Positions 3,439 to 36,620 of a stretch of 56,006 nucleotides of DNA are shown piece by piece. Within the stretch, counting starts at the first letter, position 1; each line of letters begins with the position of its first letter. This DNA is from Alphaproteobacteria bacterium (GTDB taxonomy: Bacteria > Pseudomonadota > Alphaproteobacteria > GCA-2731375), in contig JAPYPT010000003.1 in NCBI GenBank assembly GCA_029937535.1, positions 1 to 56,006 on the forward strand, given 5' to 3'. Below the pieces are notes generated by a model. That model searched no databases. It was not told the DNA's origin and was given only the letters and a program-made list of their open reading frames with translations. The translations under genes and the position numbers were made by a program.

Positions 3439-3478
3439 GGAGCATGTCACGATTCACATTAGAGCGGAATTGCTCTAA
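3439..3478 (+). repeat. Internally deleted copy of the intergenic double-hairpin element (subtype 2)
   Basis: GAGCATGT left end joined directly to CGATTCACATTAGAGCGGAATTGCTCTAA, which matches the right end of the copy at 36516-36620. Confidence 0.7.
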
Positions 3479-3545
3479 GCTTGCCGGCGCGGCCGATCCG
3501 TTGTCGAGGGAACGCCGCACCCGATACGGCATTGAACATATTGGT

Positions 3546-3971
3546 ATGACGGAAGCGCACGCCGAACGGCAAATCGTGATCGTAAACGACCTGACCGAGA
3601 TCACCACGGTCATCGGCGAGTTTGAAAGCTTTGCCGCGTCGTGCGCCGTGCCGCCCGACGTCATCAGCCGTTTCTGCCTGATATTCGATGAAATGCTGTC
3701 CAATATCATCTTCTATGGGTTCCCGGACCAGGGCCGCCATGAAATAGACATCGCGATGGCGCGCCAGGGCGCACGGCTTAGCGTGACCATCACCGATGAC
3801 GGCATACCGTTCGACCCCCTTGGTGCCGTGACGCCCAATATGGAGCTGCCCATCGAGGAGCGGGAAATCGCCGGCCTCGGCATTCACCTGGTCCGAAATT
3901 TGGTACACGGCGCCCGCTACCGCCGCGAAGACGGACGCAATATCATCACCCTGATCCAGGAATTGAATTAG
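3546..3971 (+). CDS. RsbW/SpoIIAB-like anti-sigma factor Ser/Thr kinase (HATPase_c_2)
   Basis: N-box DEMLSNIIFYG, G1 DDGIPFDP and G2 GLGIHLV. The ORF-track start at 3444 lies inside the repeat remnant, so ATG 3546 is preferred. Confidence 0.85.
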   Translation: MTEAHAERQIVIVNDLTEITTVIGEFESFAASCAVPPDVISRFCLIFDEMLSNIIFYGFPDQGRHEIDIAMARQGARLSVTITDDGIPFDPLGAVTPNMELPIEEREIAGLGIHLVRNLVHGARYRREDGRNIITLIQELN

Positions 3972-3980
3972 GACCGAGCC

Positions 3981-4889
3981 ATGGATATCAAGACGATAGA
4001 CGCCGGCGCCCTGCACGTCGCCTACGAGGAGCATGCACCGAAGGATGGCCCGGCAGATGGCCCGGCAGATGGCCCTGTGGTCATTTTGCTGCACGGCTTT
4101 CCCTACGACATCCGGGCCTATGACGAGGTGGCGCCGCGTCTGGCGGCGGCCGGTTGCCGGGTCATCGTGCCTTATTTGCGCGGCTATGGTCCGACACGAT
4201 TTCGTTCGGCGGATACGCCGCGCTCCGGCCAGCAGGCGGTGTTGGGCAACGACCTGCGGGCGCTGATGGACGCCCTGGCCATACGGTCCGCCGTGCTGGG
4301 CGGTTATGACTGGGGTGGACGGGCTGCCTGCATTGTCGCCGCCCTGTGGCCCGAGCGGGTCGCGGGACTGGTCAGCTGCAACGGCTATAACATCCAGAAT
4401 ATTGCCAGTTCGGGACGCCCGGCGCCGCCCGATATGGAGCACAAGTTCTGGTATCAATATTATTTTCATAGTGAGCGGGGCCGGGCCGGGCTGGAGGCGA
4501 ACCGCCATCCTTACTGCAAACTGTTATGGCGGCTCTGGTCCCCGAACTGGCAATTCGACGATGCCACCTATGACCGTTCGGCGGTCTCGTTCGAGAACCC
4601 GGATTTTGTCGAGGTGGTGATCCATTCATACCGCCATCGCTATGCCTTGGTGCCCGGCGACGAGGCGGTGGAGGAGATCGAGGCCCGCCTGGCCGAACGC
4701 CCGTTGATATCCGTGCCCACGGTGGCCATGGACGGCGGCGGAGACGGCGTCATCTCGCCAAATGGCTGCGCCGGACACGAACGCTTCTTCACCGGCCCCT
4801 ACCGGCGGGAGGTCGTCCCCAGCGTCGGCCATAATCTGCCCCAGGAAGCACCGGAAGAGTTTGCCCAAGCTATATTGTCTCTGATCTAA
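3981..4889 (+). CDS. Alpha/beta hydrolase, epoxide hydrolase/haloacetate dehalogenase-like
   Basis: HGFP oxyanion motif, Asp nucleophile in GYDWGG, Tyr-rich lid WYQYYF and catalytic His in GHNLPQE. Confidence 0.9.
   Translation: MDIKTIDAGALHVAYEEHAPKDGPADGPADGPVVILLHGFPYDIRAYDEVAPRLAAAGCRVIVPYLRGYGPTRFRSADTPRSGQQAVLGNDLRALMDALAIRSAVLGGYDWGGRAACIVAALWPERVAGLVSCNGYNIQNIASSGRPAPPDMEHKFWYQYYFHSERGRAGLEANRHPYCKLLWRLWSPNWQFDDATYDRSAVSFENPDFVEVVIHSYRHRYALVPGDEAVEEIEARLAERPLISVPTVAMDGGGDGVISPNGCAGHERFFTGPYRREVVPSVGHNLPQEAPEEFAQAILSLI
4044..4075 (+). repeat. 12-bp in-frame tandem repeat (GATGGCCCGGCA x2.7, encoding DGPADGPADGP)
   Basis: Read directly from the sequence. Confidence 0.9.
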
Positions 4890-4920
4890 CTCACGTCGTT
4901 ATTGCCCCTTGATATATTCG

Positions 4921-4939
4921 ATTGACGTACATCGTCAAT
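4921..4939. promoter_or_regulatory. Inverted repeat, probable HigA operator
   Basis: ATTGACG-TACAT-CGTCAAT has perfect 7-bp arms and lies 10 bp upstream of the higB ATG; type II TA operons are typically autoregulated through such palindromes. Confidence 0.65.
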
Positions 4940-4949
4940 TTTGCCACAC

Positions 4950-5237
4950 ATGATTGTCAGCTTCCGCGATAGACGGACGGAACGGTTTGCCAGAGGCGAA
5001 TTTGTCAAGGCGTTTCAAGGTTTCGCTGAGCAGGCGGGGCGGCGGTTGGCTATATTGCATGCCGCGACTTCGGTCGACGTTCTCCGCGCAATACGGAGCA
5101 ATCGGCTGGAGACATTGAGTGGTGATCGAAAAGGCCAATACAGTGTTCGCATCAACAGGCAATGGCGACTTTGCTTTGAATGGCCACAGGGCGCACCAGG
5201 TCCGTCCAATGTGGAAATTGCAGACTATCATCACTAG
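4950..5237 (+). CDS. higB: HigB-family (RelE/ParE superfamily) toxin
   Basis: MIVSFRDRRTERF...NRLETLSGDRKGQYSVRINRQWRLCFEW...VEIADYH, with toxin-first gene order. Confidence 0.92.
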   Translation: MIVSFRDRRTERFARGEFVKAFQGFAEQAGRRLAILHAATSVDVLRAIRSNRLETLSGDRKGQYSVRINRQWRLCFEWPQGAPGPSNVEIADYHH

Positions 5238-5350
5238 AGCATGTTATTTTTAAACATGCCCGGATTATTAATAAAAGATCAATTGAACCAATCACTTGGG
5301 TCGCGCCAAATTCGTCTTGGGTGACTCTGAATAATTGAAAATTGTTCTAA
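5234..5350 (+). mobile_element. MITE/RIME-like double-hairpin intergenic element, subtype 1 (copy A)
   Basis: TAGAGCATGTT...AACATGCCC...CCAATCACTTGGGTCGCGCCAAA...AATTGTTCTA is near-identical to copies at 8.9, 32.9 and 34.9 kb; flanked by TA on both sides. Confidence 0.85.
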
Positions 5351-5358
5351 ATAGGGAA

Positions 5359-5667
5359 ATGCCAATGCTACACCATGCCGTTCATCCTGGGGAAGTTCTG
5401 AGGGAAGAGCTCGCCGAAATTGGCGTATCGCCCACCGAATTGGCGCGGCAAATCGATGTGCCGCCCAATCGGATGAGTCAGATTATCAATGGTAAACGCG
5501 CGGTCACGGGCGATACCGCGCTTCGGCTTGGCCATTGGTTCAATACCGACCCCCAGTTCTGGATGAATCTTCAAACACAATATGAATTGCTGGCCGCACA
5601 GAAAATCGCGGGCAAGCGAATTCGAAAATTACCTACAGTAATGTCCACGGAGTCCGCCGACCTTTAG
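5359..5667 (+). CDS. higA: HigA-family antitoxin (HTH_XRE)
   Basis: HPGEVLREEL, ELARQIDVPPNRMSQIINGKRAVTGDTALRLG and FWMNLQ. The ORF-track start at 5335 lies within the repeat; ATG 5359 follows AGGGA. Confidence 0.92.
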   Translation: MPMLHHAVHPGEVLREELAEIGVSPTELARQIDVPPNRMSQIINGKRAVTGDTALRLGHWFNTDPQFWMNLQTQYELLAAQKIAGKRIRKLPTVMSTESADL

Positions 5668-8875: not shown

Positions 8876-8990
8876 AAGAGCAATTTTCAATTAACGGTGT
8901 CGTCCAAGACGTATTTGGCGCGACCCAAGTGATTGGTTCAATTGCTCTTTTCTTAAGAGTCCGAGCATGTTTAAAAAGAACATGCTCTAG
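8876..8990 (-). mobile_element. MITE/RIME-like double-hairpin intergenic element, subtype 1 (copy B, reverse orientation)
   Basis: Reverse complement reads CTAGAGCATGTTCTTTTTAAACATGCTCGGACTCTTAAGAAAAGAGCAATTGAACCAATCACTTGGGTCGCGCCAAATACGTCTTGG...AATTGCTCT; lies between divergent genes. Confidence 0.88.
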
Positions 8991-24383: not shown

Positions 24384-25568
24384 ATGGAAGAGAATTTAGG
24401 CGCCTATATCACACACGACGCCGTGGCCCTGGCGCCAACGGGTGACGGTCCCTTGTCGGGCCTCAACTTTGCGGTCAAGGATCTCTATGACATCGCCGGA
24501 CACACAACGGGTGCGGGCAGTCCCGACTGGCTGGCCAGCCACGGCCCGGCAAAAACCACCGCCTCCGCCGTAACCAAGCTGTTGGCGGCGGGCGCGCGCA
24601 TGGTGGCCAAGGCGCAGACCGACGAAATGGCATTTTCCATTACCGGGCAGAACGCCCACTACGGCACGCCGGTAAACGCCAATGCGCCCGGGCGTATTCC
24701 CGGTGGATCGTCATCGGGTTCGGCGGCGGCGGTGGCGGGCGGTTTGGTGGATTTCGCCCTGGGCTCGGATACCGGGGGGTCGGTGCGCATGCCGGCTGGT
24801 TTTTGCGGCATTCATGGCATCCGCACGACCCAGGACCGCATCCCCGTCGACGGCGTACATCCCCTGGCGCCCTGTTTCGACACCATCGGCTGGTTCGCCC
24901 GTGGCGGCGCGTTGATGGAGGCCGTGGGGCAGGTTCTGCTGCCTGATTTCGCAACCGGCGCCAAGCCAACAAGGCTGCTGGTTGCGCGCGACTGCTTCGC
25001 GTTACTGCCGGAACGGGCGGCAAATGCACTGGCGGACGCGGTTGACCGTGTCGCCGGACATTTCGACCGCCGGGAGGATGTACGGGTCAACAACAGCGGC
25101 GGAGCGACAGACGGCCCCGACCAATGGATGCCCCATTTCCGCAACCTGCAAATGACTGACATTTGGCGCAGCCACGGCGCCTGGATCGAACAGACGAAGC
25201 CGGCTTTTGGCCCCGGCGTCGTGGATCGTTTTGCCATGAGCGCCACCATCACGGCCCCAGCGGCGGCGGCAAGCAGTCAGGTGCGCGACCGGGTCCGCCA
25301 GCGTATGGCAGCCCTGCTGGAGGGTCATGCCGTGCTGTGTCTGCCAACCGCGCCCGGCATTGCCCCCCTGCGCGAGACGCCGGAGTCGGAGTTAGATGAT
25401 TTTCGCTGGCGCAGCATGGGCCTGACCTGCGTGGCCGGCCTGTCCGGTTGCCCGCAGATCAGCCTGCCCCTGGCCAGTCTGGAAAATTGCCCCCTGGGTT
25501 TGTCCCTGATGGCGGCGCGGGGTGGTGATGAAACCCTGTTGCGCTTGGCGGCGGCGATCGCACCCTAG
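24384..25568 (+). CDS. Amidase-signature family amidase
   Basis: FAVKD (Lys), GGSSSGS and GSDTGGSVRMPA; GGAGG RBS before ATG 24384; the stop TAG is also the first bases of the repeat element. Confidence 0.92.
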   Translation: MEENLGAYITHDAVALAPTGDGPLSGLNFAVKDLYDIAGHTTGAGSPDWLASHGPAKTTASAVTKLLAAGARMVAKAQTDEMAFSITGQNAHYGTPVNANAPGRIPGGSSSGSAAAVAGGLVDFALGSDTGGSVRMPAGFCGIHGIRTTQDRIPVDGVHPLAPCFDTIGWFARGGALMEAVGQVLLPDFATGAKPTRLLVARDCFALLPERAANALADAVDRVAGHFDRREDVRVNNSGGATDGPDQWMPHFRNLQMTDIWRSHGAWIEQTKPAFGPGVVDRFAMSATITAPAAAASSQVRDRVRQRMAALLEGHAVLCLPTAPGIAPLRETPESELDDFRWRSMGLTCVAGLSGCPQISLPLASLENCPLGLSLMAARGGDETLLRLAAAIAP

Positions 25569-25669
25569 AGCATGTCCTCTTTAAACATGCCCGGATTCTT
25601 AGGAAAAGAGCAGTTTTTCCAATCACTTAGAATCACTTCGTGATTCACATTGGATTGGAACTGCTCTAC
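25565..25669 (+). mobile_element. MITE/RIME-like double-hairpin element, subtype 2 (copy C)
   Basis: CTAGAGCATGT...ACATGCCCGGATTCTTAGGAAAAGAGCAGTTTTTCCAATCACTTAGAATCACTTCGTGATTCACATTGGATTGGAACTGCTCTA. Confidence 0.85.
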
Positions 25670-32926: not shown

Positions 32927-33043
32927 CCAGAGCATGTTCATTTAAAACATGCTCGGACTCTTAAAAAAAGAGCAATTGAACCAATCACTTGGGTCGCGCC
33001 AAATACGTCTTGGGCTCACCCAATTAATTGAAAATTGCTCTAT
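32927..33043 (+). mobile_element. MITE/RIME-like double-hairpin element, subtype 1 (copy D), between convergent MFS and leuB
   Basis: CAGAGCATGTT...AACATGCTCGGACTCTTAAAAAAAGAGCAATTGAACCAATCACTTGGGTCGCGCCAAATACGTCTTGGG...AAAATTGCTCTA. Confidence 0.88.
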
Positions 33044-33055
33044 AAGTACATGAAA

Positions 33056-34168
33056 TCAGGCCGCCAACTTATCCAATTCACGCTGCAGGCTTTCGCCCAT
33101 AACGGTGGTGGATACCTTGGCCTTGCCCGGCTGCATGATATCGGCCGTACGTAGGCCGCCGGCCAACACGTTTTCCACCGCCTGTTCGATCAGATCGGCG
33201 TCCTCGCTCAGATCGAAGGAATAACGCAGGCTCATGGCGAAACTCAGCAGTGTGGCGATGGGATTGGCCAATGATTGTCCGGCGATGTCCGGCGCGGTGC
33301 CGTGTACCGGCTCGTACAGCGCCTTGCGCGCGCCCGTGGCGTCCACGGCGCCCAATGAAGCCGACGGCAGCATGCCAAGAGAGCCGGTCAACATGGCGGC
33401 GGTGTCCGACAGCATATCGCCGAACAGGTTATCGGTGACGATGACATCGAATTGTTTCGGATCGCGCACCAATTGCATGGAGCAATTGTCCGCGTACATG
33501 TGGCTTAATTCCACATCCGAAAAGGATTCCGCATGCAGCTTGGTAACCTCGTCCCGCCATAGCACGCCGGATTCCATGACATTGGCCTTTTCCACCGAGC
33601 AGACCTTGTTGCCGCGCTTGCGCGCCAGCTCGAACGCCAGCACGGCGACCCGGCGGATTTCCGAGGTGGTGTAGGTTTGGGTGTTGAAGCCCCGGCGCTG
33701 GCCGTCGGGCAGGGTTTCGATACCGCGCGGCTCGCCAAAATAGACCCCGCCGGTCAATTCCCGAATGATCAGGATATCCAGACCCGAGATGATTTCCGGC
33801 TTCAGTGTAGAGGCATCGACCAGGGCATCGAAGCATATGGCCGGGCGCAGATTGGCGAACAGATCCATTTCCTTGCGCAGCCGCAGTAAACCGCGTTCGG
33901 GCTTCTGCTCGAACGGCAGATCGTCCCACTTGGGCCCGCCCACGGCGCCCAGGAGCACGGCATCCGCAGACATGGCGTCGGCCATGGTTTCGTCCGTCAG
34001 CGGCGTGCCGTCGGCATCGATGGCGGCGCCCCCGACCTTACCTTCGGAAATATCGAAACTGACGGCGCGGCGGCGATCCATCCAATCGATTATCCCGCGC
34101 ACTTCACGCATTACTTCCGGTCCGATGCCGTCGCCCGGCAGGATCAACAAACTTTTGTTGGAGGCCAT
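33056..34168 (-). CDS. leuB: 3-isopropylmalate dehydrogenase
   Basis: [25 protein letters not shown] and [14 protein letters not shown]. Confidence 0.97.
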
Positions 34169-34218
34169 ATTTAGTTTACTCACTCTGCTTGAAGGGGTTC
34201 GGAAAAAATTCGAGGTTC

Positions 34219-34842
34219 TTATTCCGCGGCATTGCCGTAAAGCCAGGGTTGCCCGGCTTTTTGCCCTGCCTCGAAGCTGTCGATGCGGTCCTTGCGCTGT
34301 ATGGTCTGGCCAATATCATCCAGACCTTCCAGCAGGCATTGCTTGCGGAATGGATCCATTTCAAAATTTACAACGCCGCCGTCGGGGCCGGTGATTTCCT
34401 GACTTTCGAGATTCACGGTCAGGGTGGCGTTGGCGCCGCGGTCCGCGTCATCGAACAGCAATTCCAACTGCTCCGGCGTCACCTTGATGGGCAGAATGCC
34501 GTTCTTGAAGCAATTGTTGTAAAAAATATCGGCGAAGGATGTTGAGATCACGCATTTGATGCCAAAATCCAAAATCGCCCAGGGCGCATGTTCGCGGGAG
34601 GAGCCGCAGCCGAAATTATCCCCGGCCACCAATATCTGAGCTTCGCGGTAGGCCGGCTTGTTCAGCACGAAATCTTCTTTTTCGCTGCCGTCCTCGTTGT
34701 AGCGCATCTCGGCGAACAGGTTCTTGCCCAGACCGGCCCGTTGGATGGTCTTTAGATACTGCTTGGGAATAATCTTGTCGGTATCGATGTTGATACCGCG
34801 CATGGGAGCGGCCACACCGCTGACGGTTTTAAACTTTTCCAT
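34219..34842 (-). CDS. leuD: 3-isopropylmalate dehydratase small subunit
   Basis: [23 protein letters not shown] and [13 protein letters not shown]. Confidence 0.97.
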
Positions 34843-34856
34843 TTGCCAATCCTCCT

Positions 34857-34973
34857 CTAGAGCATGTTCTTATTAAACATGCTCGGACTCTTATGAAAAG
34901 AGCAATTGAACCAATTACTTGGGTCGCGGCAAATACGTCTTGGGCGACACCGGTTAATTGAAAATTGCTCTAA
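34857..34973 (+). mobile_element. MITE/RIME-like double-hairpin element, subtype 1 (copy E), between leuC and leuD
   Basis: CTAGAGCATGTT...AACATGCTCGGACTCTTATGAAAAGAGCAATT...GGTCGCGGCAAATACGTCTTGGGCGAC...AATTGCTCTA; TA on both flanks; abuts the leuD RBS. Confidence 0.9.
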
Positions 34974-34980
34974 ACCAACT

Positions 34981-36384
34981 CTATGCCATTTCGCGCACGT
35001 CGGTCAGATGACCGGCGATGGCGGCGGCGGCGGCCATGGCGGGGCTGACCAGATGGGTGCGCCCGCCGAAGCCCTGACGGCTCTCGAAATTCCGGTTCGA
35101 GGTCGAGGCACAGCGTTCACCCGGCTCCAACCGGTCGGCATTCATCGCCAGGCACATGGAACAGCCCGCATCGCGCCATTCGAAACCGGCCTCGATCAGG
35201 ATCTTGTCCAGGCCCTCTTCCTCGGCCTGATGCTTGACCAGGCCCGAGCCCGGGACCACCATCGCCAGCACGCCATCGGCGACCTTGCGCCCCTTGGCGA
35301 CGGCGGCGGCGGCGCGGATATCCTCGATCCGGCCATTGGTGCAGGAGCCGATGAAGGCCTTGTCGATGGTGACATCCCGCATGGCCATGCCCGGCTCCAG
35401 CCCCATGTATTCGAGCGAGCGTTCCCAGGCGGCGCGTTGATCGTCGTCGCGGGCCTGATCCAGGGTTGGTACGTTGCCGGTAATATCGGCGACGTTCTCC
35501 GGGCTGGTGCCCCAGGTAACCTGCGGGATCAGCTCCGAGACATCCAACGAGACATCGATGTCAAAGACCGCATCGGCGTCGGTGTGGAAGGTTTTCCAAT
35601 AATTCACCGCCGCCTCGTACTGGCCTGTCTTGGGGCCCATGGCACGGCCCTTCATATATTCAAAGGTGGTCTCGTCGGCCGCGATCAGGCCGCCCCGGGC
35701 GCCGCCCTCGATGGACATGTTGCAGACCGTCATGCGTCCTTCCATGGACAGGGCGCGGATCGCATCGCCGGTGTACTCCACGACGCAGCCGGTGCCGCCC
35801 GCGGTGCCGATCTTGCGGATGATGGCCAGGATCAGGTCCTTGGCGGTGCAGCCCACGGGCAGCGCGCCGGTGACATTGATCCGCATATTCTTGGAACGCT
35901 GCTGGATCAGGGTCTGGGTGGCCAGGACGTGCTCGACTTCGGATGTGCCGATACCAAAAGCCAGGGCGCCAAAGGCGCCATGGGTCGCGGTGTGGCTGTC
36001 GCCGCAGACGATGACCATACCCGGCTGGGTGAAGCCTTGTTCCGGGCCGATGATATGGACGATGCCTTGGCGGGGATCATCGACGGCAAAATACGGCACA
36101 TCGAATTCGGCGATATTGCGCTCCAGGGTCTCGACCTGCAGCTTGCTCTCCGGCTCCTGGATGCCCTGATCCCGGTTGATGGTGGGAATGTTGTGGTCGG
36201 CCACGGCCAGGGTGGCATCCAGGCGGCGCACCTTGCGGCCGGCGGCGCGCAAGCCCTCGAAAGCTTGCGGCGAGGTCACCTCATGCACCAGATGACGATC
36301 CACATAAATTATGCAGGCGCCGTCGTCCTGTTGATCGACCAGATGTGCGTCCCAGATCTTATCGTAAAGCGTTTTACCGGCCAT
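34981..36384 (-). CDS. leuC: 3-isopropylmalate dehydratase large subunit
   Basis: [22 protein letters not shown] and Fe-S cysteines in [10 protein letters not shown] and GCSMCLAMN. Confidence 0.97.
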
Positions 36385-36515: not shown

Positions 36516-36620
36516 CTAGAGCATTTCCGAGTAGGAAATGCTCCGATTCTTAAGATTAGAGCAATTTTTCCAATCACTTTGAATCGCTTCGCGATTCACA
36601 TCAGATCGGAATTGCTCTAG
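36516..36620 (+). mobile_element. MITE/RIME-like double-hairpin element, subtype 2 (copy F), between rplS and leuC
   Basis: CTAGAGCATTTCC-gagta-GGAAATGCTC...TAGAGCAATT...GAATCGCTTCGCGATTC...AATTGCTCTAG. Confidence 0.88.

Follow-up and report, generated by a model that had tools for sequence, protein, structure and literature searches.

A genus-restricted family of transposase-less, TA-bounded repeats in marine Alphaproteobacteria and its putative IS630-family parents

Seven copies in one window and the family to which they belong

The window, that is the whole stretch of DNA analysed here (56,006 nt), carries among its genes a toxin-antitoxin pair, an amidase gene and the leuCDB operon, and seven copies of one short repeat were located between or at the ends of its genes (Table 1), all of them where the initial annotation had placed them. 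Of the six full copies, four (A, C, E and F) have TA on both sides, as had also been noted. In copy A the duplicated TA and the first G of the element together form the TAG (5235-5237) at which higB stops, and in copy C the TA plus the G of the element likewise closes the 449-codon amidase frame. Copy C combines a left hairpin of the GAGCATGTC type with a right hairpin of subfamily 1b (GAGCAGTT...GAATCAC/GTGATTC...AACTGCTC). The remnants at the copy T site differ between G016, G005 and G014, which suggests that this TA site is old and has been hit repeatedly.

Table 1. Repeat copies in the window, with coordinates counted from TA to TA
Copy	Coordinates	Strand	Form	Location	Altered or extended flank	Orthologous site in related species
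T	3440..3477	+	internally deleted relic; first 9 nt of the left end (GAGCATGTC) fused to a subfamily-1 right arm, of which the last 27 nt remain, plus TA		left TA lost	only ~8 nt (TCGCCCTA) retained in G016; other relics in G005 and G014
A	5235..5349	+	116-nt subfamily	between higB (HigB-like toxin) and higA (HTH_3 antitoxin)		empty in G016, where higB ends TGA, 15 nt before higA
B	8876..8989	-	116-nt subfamily	divergent spacer, GMC oxidoreductase gene / isochorismatase-family gene	right-hand TA decayed to TT	empty in G014, G018 and G016
C	25566..25668	+	chimaeric 104-nt form	at an amidase gene's TAG stop codon; upstream of a histidine kinase gene		empty in G016, G005 and G018; gene terminus there ...CCC TAG
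D	32928..33042	+	116-nt subfamily	between convergent MFS transporter gene and leuB	left TA decayed to CA	empty in G016
E	34858..34972	+	116-nt subfamily	leuC-leuD spacer of the minus-strand leuCDB operon, orientation opposite to these genes		missing from the spacer in 11/11 sister species examined; contig break there in G016
F	36517..36619	+	subfamily 1a (104 nt); left hairpin GAGCATTTCC/GGAAATGCTC		CTAG on either side	empty in G016

A total of 208 copies, 138 of them full length, were found in the 5.58-Mb assembly with nhmmer, so the hundreds of copies that had been extrapolated from the window do exist, the window being ~3.4 times denser in copies than the genome average. The copies are AT-rich, intergenic and TA-bounded, and 137 of the 138 full-length ones lie outside the gene calls, which are approximate. 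They belong to three subfamilies of 104 to 116 nt, with terminal inverted repeats that agree at 13/14 nt in the subfamily 1 consensus (TAGAGCA(T/A)TTCCGA) and at ~14/21 nt in the consensus sequences of subfamilies 3 and 5. Each element consists of a left hairpin, a CCAATCACTT linker and a GAGCAATT/AATTGCTC closing stem around alternative cores; this architecture had been described correctly from the window, but the two cores reported there become three genome-wide. The folding z-score is about -6, and the elements carry 1-3 GANTC sites. The median distance from a copy to its subfamily consensus is ~8% and no two copies are identical; there is no sign of current activity, and in the source genome the family appears old and is probably inactive. 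A swarm of other GAGCA-ended hairpin families occurs beside the family described here. A recurrent CACACTACACGAC junction was considered as the inner part of an autonomous element and rejected, as it belongs to a second, unrelated MITE of ~130 bp inserted into the elements.

The hosts, labelled 'Rhodospirillaceae', are marine Alphaproteobacteria that have not been cultured, and species of the genus carry from 0 to at least 150 copies each. A covariance model gave no match in 300 alphaproteobacterial genomes outside the genus, and blastn with two consensus sequences gave none in 72,556 plasmids. The repeats are thus transposase-less MITEs restricted to one genus, in keeping with the modular, lineage-specific family that had been proposed.

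Target sites and candidate parent insertion sequences

Each of the seven window sites has an empty counterpart in related species, in G016, the closest relative, for six of them and in 11 others for site E. At site F, G016 reads CCTTGC-TC-GGAAATTTAC (TC followed by GGAAAT), and the window reads CCTTGC-TA-element-TA-GAAAATCTAC (the second TA followed by GAAAAT), i.e. one dinucleotide against TA-element-TA, an exact 2-bp duplication. Within the source genome, one copy (C463:3612) is nested within another at cacat-TA-gatcgg and has TA on both sides, and 15 element-TA-element abutments were counted. The TA is a true target duplication, and the filled and empty pair at site F together with the nested copy bears out the earlier assignment to MITEs that duplicate TA. 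In 111 of 126 copies the left TA follows a C, which is already there in the empty sites of relatives; the base after the right TA is mostly G or A, the right tetramer being CTAG in 53 copies and CTAA in 29. Contact with a stop codon is seen in ~39% of copies. Together with the sibling GAGCA-ended hairpins, the family supplies the TAG stop codon of ~80 genes and accounts for 13% of all CTAG sites.

No transposase is encoded in the window, as had been stated, the IS630, IS4/5 and Y1 matches of the genome all lying on other contigs. A search for a transposase gene bounded by the same termini succeeded in sister species: six complete elements of 1041-1064 bp in G013, G014, G016 and G032 encode IS630-family transposases (NF033545 profile, 138-148 bits, cut-off 100), and all six are flanked c-TA...TA-g. 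Their ends, TA-GAGCATTTCCGA and TA-GAGCGTTTTCAATT, match the MITE ends. One end pair, TAGAGCATTTCCGAC / TAGAGCGTTTCCGAC, agrees with the subfamily-1 ends at 14/14 nt on the left and 12/14 on the right, and the other, TAGAGCGTTTTCAATTT / TAGAGCATTTTCACTG, resembles the right end of subfamilies 3 and 5, TAGAGCAATTTTCAATTAATC; L125 and L128 carry TAGAGCATTTCCGAC, and L126 carries TAGAGCGTTTTCAATTT. Since the transposase stop codon is only 14 nt from the tip, the matched ends are the insertion sequence's own. The sequence common to insertion sequence and MITE is confined to the terminal 12-27 nt, and MITEs usually share only short terminal sequence with their parent. Of these elements the source genome retains only a defunct 3' fragment (C96), ending ...AATTGAAAACGCTCTAG, and no intact cognate transposase was found in its assembly, which is 96% complete. 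The two IS630 copies that are intact there (C93 and C57) were rejected as parents on their ends, TA-GTGCTCC and TA-GTGTATTG. Across species, MITE load and present-day insertion sequence content do not track each other. Judged from these ends, the putative parent is the ~1.05-kb IS630-family group of the sister species, relatives of ISRm2011-2 of Sinorhizobium, which agrees with the IS630/Tc1-mariner type of enzyme suggested initially.

Origin and spread of the elements

The repeats are very probably MITEs derived from, and moved in trans by, IS630 elements of the ISRm2011-2 group, a reading built on their MITE anatomy, TA duplication, C-TA-R preference, presence and absence among species, end identity with IS630 elements and restriction to one genus. 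Mobilisation by an IS630-type transposase is what the shared ends suggest, and cut-and-paste chemistry would be expected from established knowledge of IS630/Tc1-mariner elements. The transposase would recognise the short terminal inverted repeats, TA-GAGCA(T/A)TTCCGA..., or in the right arm of the other subfamilies TA-GAGCAATTTTCAATT..., and the element would be cut out and pasted into a TA, preferably within CTAG or CTAA, with duplication of the TA. As the element begins with G and ends with C, insertion would rebuild TAG on both strands and make a new CTAG at its own borders, which would explain why many copies lie exactly on stop codons, how short operon spacers are filled without harm, and how elements pile up end to end and nest into a mosaic. 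The hairpins may then be the palindromic legacy of two inverted transposase-binding ends, and the stem 'covariation' may reflect different founder (master) sequences matched to transposase variants and not an RNA fold.

The strongest competing explanation is that the elements are functional RNA modules or have turned into them (stem-loops that stabilise 3' ends, attenuators or terminators, or small RNAs), with mobility serving only for dispersal and the hairpins kept by selection on transcripts, as the structural selection postulated from the window would imply. The three compensatory changes on which that claim was built are real: among 72 copies, pair 10-22 is GC in 45 and UA in 23, pair 12-20 is UA in 40 and CG in 24, and pair 49-109 is AU in 61 and GC in 10, and 92% of cells are paired against 30-50% in slid controls. 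Such double changes keep pairing between subfamilies and the folding is strong, as a functional RNA would have it, but within individual copies one-sided stem changes outnumber compensatory ones by ~6 to 1 (329 cells against 54), 31 of the 54 compensatory cells stem from two shared events, and the wobble-preserving share (~36%) is near a rough neutral estimate of about one third. The covariation thus arises from a handful of subfamily-founding events and exists at the subfamily level only, and the predominance of one-sided changes in the stems of individual copies makes an RNA gene unlikely. Divergence is slightly lower in stems (0.07) than at unpaired positions (0.10-0.12), which a transcript function would predict. 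The same holds for the frequent contact with stop codons, for the TTTTCTT that can be read after hairpin 2 of subfamilies 3 and 5 in the commoner orientation, and for a 2:1 bias in orientation with respect to co-directional genes on either side (58 vs 27, p ~0.001; 28:8 in subfamily 1), which plain selfish insertion leaves unaccounted for. Against this, copies occur in both orientations and in every spacer type at background proportions, a scan of four copies for consensus promoters and terminators found nothing inside the elements, and a strong terminator would be harmful at copy E (leuC-leuD) and copy A (higB/higA). In addition, Rfam at gathering thresholds returned no match for the element, and sister species dispense with it at all seven sites. 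Taken together, these data make a primary RNA function improbable, and conservation as a folded RNA is not upheld.

Other transposases fit the observations far less well than the IS630 type. IS427/IS711-like elements of the IS5 family insert at YTAR and duplicate TA, which would suit the C-TA-R target, and the association of Bru-RS with IS711 in Brucella would lend such a source a precedent. However, no DUF4096-type IS427 transposase was found in the genome, its four DDE_Tnp_1 matches are unrelated (ends were read for C150 only, an incomplete element with no GAGCA terminus), and the MITE ends match IS630-family elements instead, so that an IS5-family origin is very hard to sustain. Equally remote is a spread as single-stranded DNA of REP/REPIN-like palindromes by a Y1 (HUH) transposase of the RAYT/TIRYT type. 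The hairpin modules do form dimers and clusters like REPs and BIMEs, and the genome does encode one Y1 transposase; the GTAG or CGTC tag by which REP/REPIN elements are defined (PMC3733652) is, however, absent. The Y1 gene (C399), contrary to the expectation of a RAYT flanked by the same termini, is bordered by an unrelated repeat (CGGCGACGTAATACC...) and has no GAGCA hairpins, and a 2-bp target duplication with terminal inverted repeats identical to IS630 ends belongs to DDE transposons.

GANTC is the methylation site of CcrM, the alphaproteobacterial cell-cycle methylase, of which the host encodes an orthologue. Of 16 upstream ends of the insertion sequence group, drawn from several orders, 15 have a GANTC whose position, counted from the flanking TA, is exactly nt 23-27, namely 8/8 ends from the marine genus and 7/8 plasmid ends (Sinorhizobium, Brucella anthropi, Hoeflea, Paracoccus, Polymorphobacter and Microvirga). 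Any of the four bases (A, C, T or G) is found at its centre, the downstream ends lack it, and the consensus right arms of the MITE subfamilies have it at an unchanged distance. By analogy with Dam, which controls IS10 and Tn5, one may tentatively suppose, though we consider it doubtful, that the ISRm2011-2 group and the MITEs derived from it are gated by CcrM methylation. If true, full methylation would silence the transposase promoter or end, and the hemimethylation that accompanies passage of the replication fork would license transposition. Alternatively, TGANTC may simply be a protein-binding box specific to the upstream end. In the MITE copies no post-insertion selection on GANTC was detected, divergence being 0.06-0.13 at its fixed positions and 0.08-0.09 elsewhere.

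Significance and comparison with known repeats

The family itself is new, within the known class of selfish DNA that MITEs represent. Together with the sibling GAGCA-ended hairpins it explains, for annotation, hundreds of intergenic repeats, and these break the present metagenome assembly at many contig ends. End identity allows a parent insertion sequence to be named here, as it does for few other bacterial MITE families. The family also presents a CTAG-targeting element that makes its own new targets and thereby builds mosaics, and it warns that stem covariation among repeat copies need not signal a functional RNA. The GANTC at the parent end suggests a connection of transposition with the alphaproteobacterial cell cycle that is simple and can be tested.

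The likeness to the RIME repeats of rhizobia and to Bru-RS1 and Bru-RS2 of Brucella, drawn in the initial annotation, is probably one of analogy only. These repeats and the CIR elements of Caulobacter and Brucella, which were noted for their GANTC sites (PMC2229807), are likewise ~100-bp AT-rich palindromic intergenic repeats, but the present hosts are not rhizobia, and the comparison, made through alphaproteobacterial genomes outside the genus (0/300 model matches) and plasmids (0/72,556), gave no detectable relation in sequence. Correia/NEMIS elements of Neisseria resemble the family in architecture: they measure 100-155 bp, have TA at both ends and vary in length by internal blocks, and they are found beside genes with which they may be co-transcribed (PMC2229807). 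They differ in having 24-26-bp terminal repeats, IHF sites, promoter functions and no identified transposase, and their hosts are unrelated.

The insertion sequences of the sister species fall with the ISRm2011-2 / ISRm10-1 group of Sinorhizobium meliloti and other Alphaproteobacteria, with which they share the length (1041-1064 bp against 1057 bp including both TAs), a two-frame transposase gene, TA-GAGC termini and the upstream-end GANTC at nt 23-27. Their transposases are 45-58% identical to plasmid-encoded relatives in named Alphaproteobacteria and ~46% identical to that of ISRm2011-2. That group consists of full insertion sequences, whereas the family described here is a transposase-less derivative; to our knowledge no MITE family has been assigned to it, and our literature search returned none.

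A close parallel is RUP of Streptococcus pneumoniae, which, in the account of Oggioni & Claverys 1999 as given in PMC2229807, is a ~107-bp non-coding element with about 100 or more intergenic copies, subtypes and a strong fold; it inserts at TA, and its short terminal repeats match an IS630-family element, IS630-Spn1, thought to move it in trans. Sequence and host are unrelated (Firmicutes against marine Alphaproteobacteria), and the present family lacks its cognate insertion sequence in the source genome. It further differs from RUP in its two hairpin modules with exchangeable cores, in its place within a swarm of sibling GAGCA-ended hairpin families, and in its clear preference for CTAG and stop codons.

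Structure, subfamilies and companion repeats

The initial annotation had described seven copies of a double-hairpin repeat (A to F and the truncated copy T), and direct reading and alignment bore this description out. The left hairpin comprises 9-10 bp (GAGCATGTT/AACATGCTC, in copy F instead GAGCATTTCC/GGAAATGCTC), the linker contains TCTTAAGA and terminates in CCAATCACTT, and the long second hairpin has a closing stem GAGCAATT/AATTGCTC with alternative cores within it. By itself, CCAATCACTT occurs 7 times at no more than one mismatch against 2.8 expected. Whole elements gave folding z-scores of -5.5 to -6.7 relative to shuffles, and an Rfam search of the elements returned no match. Iterated nhmmer searches of the assembly carrying the window (G000; 5.58 Mb, 534 contigs, 60.4% G+C, the window being contig C455) recovered 208 family copies, 138 of them full length. 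Besides three main subfamilies, numerous deletion derivatives, chimaeras and solo hairpins were present, and a stand-alone mini-element (CTAGAGCATTTCCAATTCGGAAATGCTCTAG) consists only of two 10-nt terminal repeats and a 5-nt loop, with CTAG on both sides.

Locations of the repeats and related features, and sizes of the main subfamilies (C numbers other than the window are contigs of G000)
Feature	Location	Length	Copies	Remarks
Copy A	window 5235-5349 (+)			between higB and higA (gene pair, window 4941-5664)
Copy C	window 25566-25668 (+)
Copy E	window 34858-34972 (+)			leuC-leuD spacer of leuCDB operon, window 33056-36384; orientation opposite to genes
Copy F	window 36517-36619 (+)
Copy T	window 3440-3477 (+)	~38-40 nt		relic of internal deletion
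Subfamily 1		104 nt	56	variants 1a and 1b, two double changes apart
Subfamily 3		104 nt	36
Subfamily 5		116 nt	37	core 12 nt longer
Mini-element	C128:5244-5274; C315:17399-17428	27 nt
Nested copy	C463:3612
Sibling hairpins	e.g. C93:32167-32270; C150:18380-18470
Unrelated MITE	e.g. C331:1733-1860; C355:946-1073; C449:10643-10770	~130 bp
Y1 gene	C399:1700-2600			RAYT/TIRYT-like
CcrM orthologue	C374/C462

The ends TA-GAGCA...TGCTC-TA also bound several other abundant hairpin families in this genome. One example of these siblings, with ends TA-GAGCAA...TTGCTC-TA, is TAGAGCAACCCGCATTCAATTGGATTCAATTGAATGCGGATAAGTTGCTCTA, after which comes a TA-GCGCATG...CATGCGC-TA hairpin. Such siblings occur in great numbers and lie at many contig ends, and the assembly is fragmented because they often terminate contigs. 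A second, unrelated MITE (ends CACACTACACGACA...) was found inside at least 12 family copies, at one fixed spot after GATT/AATT of the right arm, with further occurrences outside family copies. At the TA upstream of (A/G)GCTTGCCGGCG occupied by copy T, the relic differs by species: 38 nt in the window, a piece of the right arm in G005, the end of a GCGCATG-type hairpin in G014 and some 8 nt in G016 (all sister species). This site is either a repeatedly hit TA or an ancient insertion decaying differently in each species.

Target site and gene context

Stretches of 13 kb and 8 kb from the window served as queries against sister genomes, and the fetched sites were aligned. The proposed insertional origin of the copies held, all seven window sites being empty in related species, six of them in G016, the closest. 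Site E falls at a contig break in G016, and its copy is absent from the leuC-leuD spacer in 11 of 11 other species checked; this spacer is short (about 15-60 nt) in 11 sister species. At site F the exact empty site, CCTTGC-TC-GGAAATTTAC in G016 versus CCTTGC-TA-[element]-TA-GAAAATCTAC in the window, shows a 2-bp duplication. Copy C has the TAG stop codon of an amidase gene as its target. In the copy nested within another copy, the single TA of the host is now on both sides, and element-TA-element junctions number 15.

Among 126 copies, 55 were flanked by TA on both sides and 113 on at least one; C preceded the left TA in 111, and the base after the right TA was mostly G or A, the right tetramer being CTAG in 53 and CTAA in 29. 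Because this C is already there in the empty sites of relatives, it is part of the target, which reads C-TA-R. G000 strongly avoids CTAG (2,649 sites, 0.13 of the expectation from base composition), and 356 of these sites are element junctions. TAG stop codons fused to a GAGCA end number 81. Contact with the stop codon of a frame at least 80 codons long was seen for about 39% of full copies, roughly double the off-frame control. By rough gene calls, some 35% of stop codons are TAG, an unusually large share for a bacterium. Copy A provides the stop codon of the toxin gene higB: the gap to the antitoxin gene higA is 127 nt in the window and 15 nt in G016, where higB has TGA, and the window reads TA-element-TA-A, so that the old higB TAA became TAG.

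With gene calls from an approximate codon-usage caller made for this analysis, the spacers holding copies were co-directional (85), divergent (23) and convergent (16), matching background proportions, and copies often took up the greater part of a short spacer. Where the spacer was co-directional, 58 copies ran against gene direction versus 27 with it (p ~0.001), a bias carried by subfamilies 1 (28:8) and 3 (19:7). Simple promoter and terminator scans of four copies found nothing inside.

Parent insertion sequence and the GANTC at its upstream end

The two IS630-family copies of G000 were rejected as parent, their ends differing from those of the family, as was its sole Y1 gene, bracketed by an unrelated repeat (GGCGACGTAAT.../...ATTACGTCGCC); no IS427-type transposase gene was found in this genome. 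The IS630 DDE domain was searched for across the whole genus, and TA-flanked inverted ends were then looked for; this yielded six complete elements of 1041-1064 bp in four sister species (G013, G014, G016 and G032), all flanked c-TA...TA-g, with ends starting TA-GAGC (TA-GACC in one case). They code for IS630-family transposases (NF033545, 138 and 148 bits against a cut-off of 100), and since 14 nt separate the stop codon from the element tip, the GAGC repeats are ends of the IS itself. The ends of L125/L128, two of these IS630-family loci, are TAGAGCATTTCCGAC and TAGAGCGTTTCCGAC, and those of the subfamily-1 MITE TAGAGCATTTCCGA and TAGAGCAATTCCGA; L126, from G016, has TAGAGCGTTTTCAATTT and TAGAGCATTTTCACTG, which are similar to the right end of subfamilies 3 and 5 (TAGAGCAATTTTCAATTAATC) and to that of a further G000 MITE family, whose end reads TAGAGCATTTTCAATGCAGTCTGAAC. 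Both kinds of end begin at TA, so the comparison involves no sliding; the 12-14-nt identity is far beyond chance. G000 itself retains only a 3' remnant (protein 87% identical to L126, ending AATTGAAAACGCTCTAG) and a 29-residue scrap. In tblastn against plasmids, the genus transposases group with ISRm2011-2, ISRm10-1 and relatives at 45-58% identity, in Rhizobium, Brucella anthropi, Hoeflea, Paracoccus and other hosts, and ISRm2011-2 has the same size and TA-GAGC ends.

In 8 of 8 GAGC/GACC-ended IS copies of the genus, the end lying upstream of the transposase gene carries GANTC at precisely nt 23-27, where nt 1 is the T of the flanking TA. The central base is, in order, A, C, A, A, T, G, A and T, and downstream ends never have the site. 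Seven of eight named plasmid relatives (ISRm2011-2, ISRm10-1 and those of Brucella anthropi, Hoeflea, Paracoccus, Polymorphobacter and Microvirga) share it, the exception being ISMno11 with GAAAC, which brings the tally to 15 of 16 ISRm2011-2-like upstream ends from several orders (loci L125-L128, L137-L139 and L151 in the genus; L167, L168 and L170-L174 on plasmids). The MITE consensus right arms compared carry GANTC at nt 23-27 as well; subfamily 5 is polymorphic there and its majority consensus lacks the site, and individual MITE copies retain it no better than other positions. The cell-cycle methylase CcrM has GANTC as its site, and a clear orthologue is encoded in G000 (E = 1e-95 to Caulobacter CcrM, 6PBD). 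Dam acts as a methylation switch in IS10/Tn5, and by analogy the upstream GANTC could be such a switch, or else a box for an upstream-end-specific protein; none of the papers searched names ISRm2011-2 along with GANTC or CcrM. This regularity and the identified parent IS group are the added value of the finding.

Pairing, age and relation to known repeats

The stems had been described as covarying and under structural selection. Across 72 copies, pairing in the two helices that every subfamily has is 92%, falling to 30-50% when the partner is slid, and 9 of 19 pairs have double changes. These changes are real, and they separate subfamilies (pair 10-22, GC 45 / UA 23; pair 12-20, UA 40 / CG 24; pair 49-109, AU 61 / GC 10). 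Within subfamilies, 329 stem cells show one-sided changes versus 54 double, of which two shared events account for 31; a G-T/G-U pair is kept in 36% of one-sided changes, about the value for transitions alone by rough estimate, and stems are less diverged than unpaired positions by only 1.4-1.8 times. The subfamily-1 left hairpin is simply the 10-nt terminal repeat folded back on itself, and hairpin 2 is two inward-facing arms, each like the IS upstream end; the pairing is therefore best read as palindromic transposase-binding ends inherited from few founders, not as an RNA fold kept at each locus. No two copies in G000 are identical, nearest neighbours have 2-3 differences at best, and the median distance from consensus is about 8%. 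Because the copies are diverged and there is no intact cognate transposase, the family looks old and is probably inactive in G000.

When one genome for each species was scanned with a pattern, the only matches were in metagenome-assembled genomes of uncultured marine Alphaproteobacteria. Many of these bear the label 'Rhodospirillaceae bacterium', and their sources are the deep ocean, Saanich Inlet, the Caspian Sea, Antarctic waters and the Arabian Sea. With a covariance model built from 72 copies, numbers were very uneven among the genus's 21 species: three reached at least 150 copies (counting stopped at 150 per genome), others had 127, 139, 101, 96 and 85, two had one each and one had none. 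The model had no match in 300 genomes of 253 other alphaproteobacterial genera, including two of the same family (under stricter filters), and blastn of two consensus sequences had none in 72,556 plasmids; the suggested likeness to rhizobial RIME and Brucella Bru-RS is therefore one of analogy, not kinship. Among described elements, the nearest analogue is RUP of Streptococcus pneumoniae (107 bp, about 108 copies, TA target, ends like IS630-Spn1; PMC2229807). The finding is real and well explained, the kind of element being already known and the family itself new.
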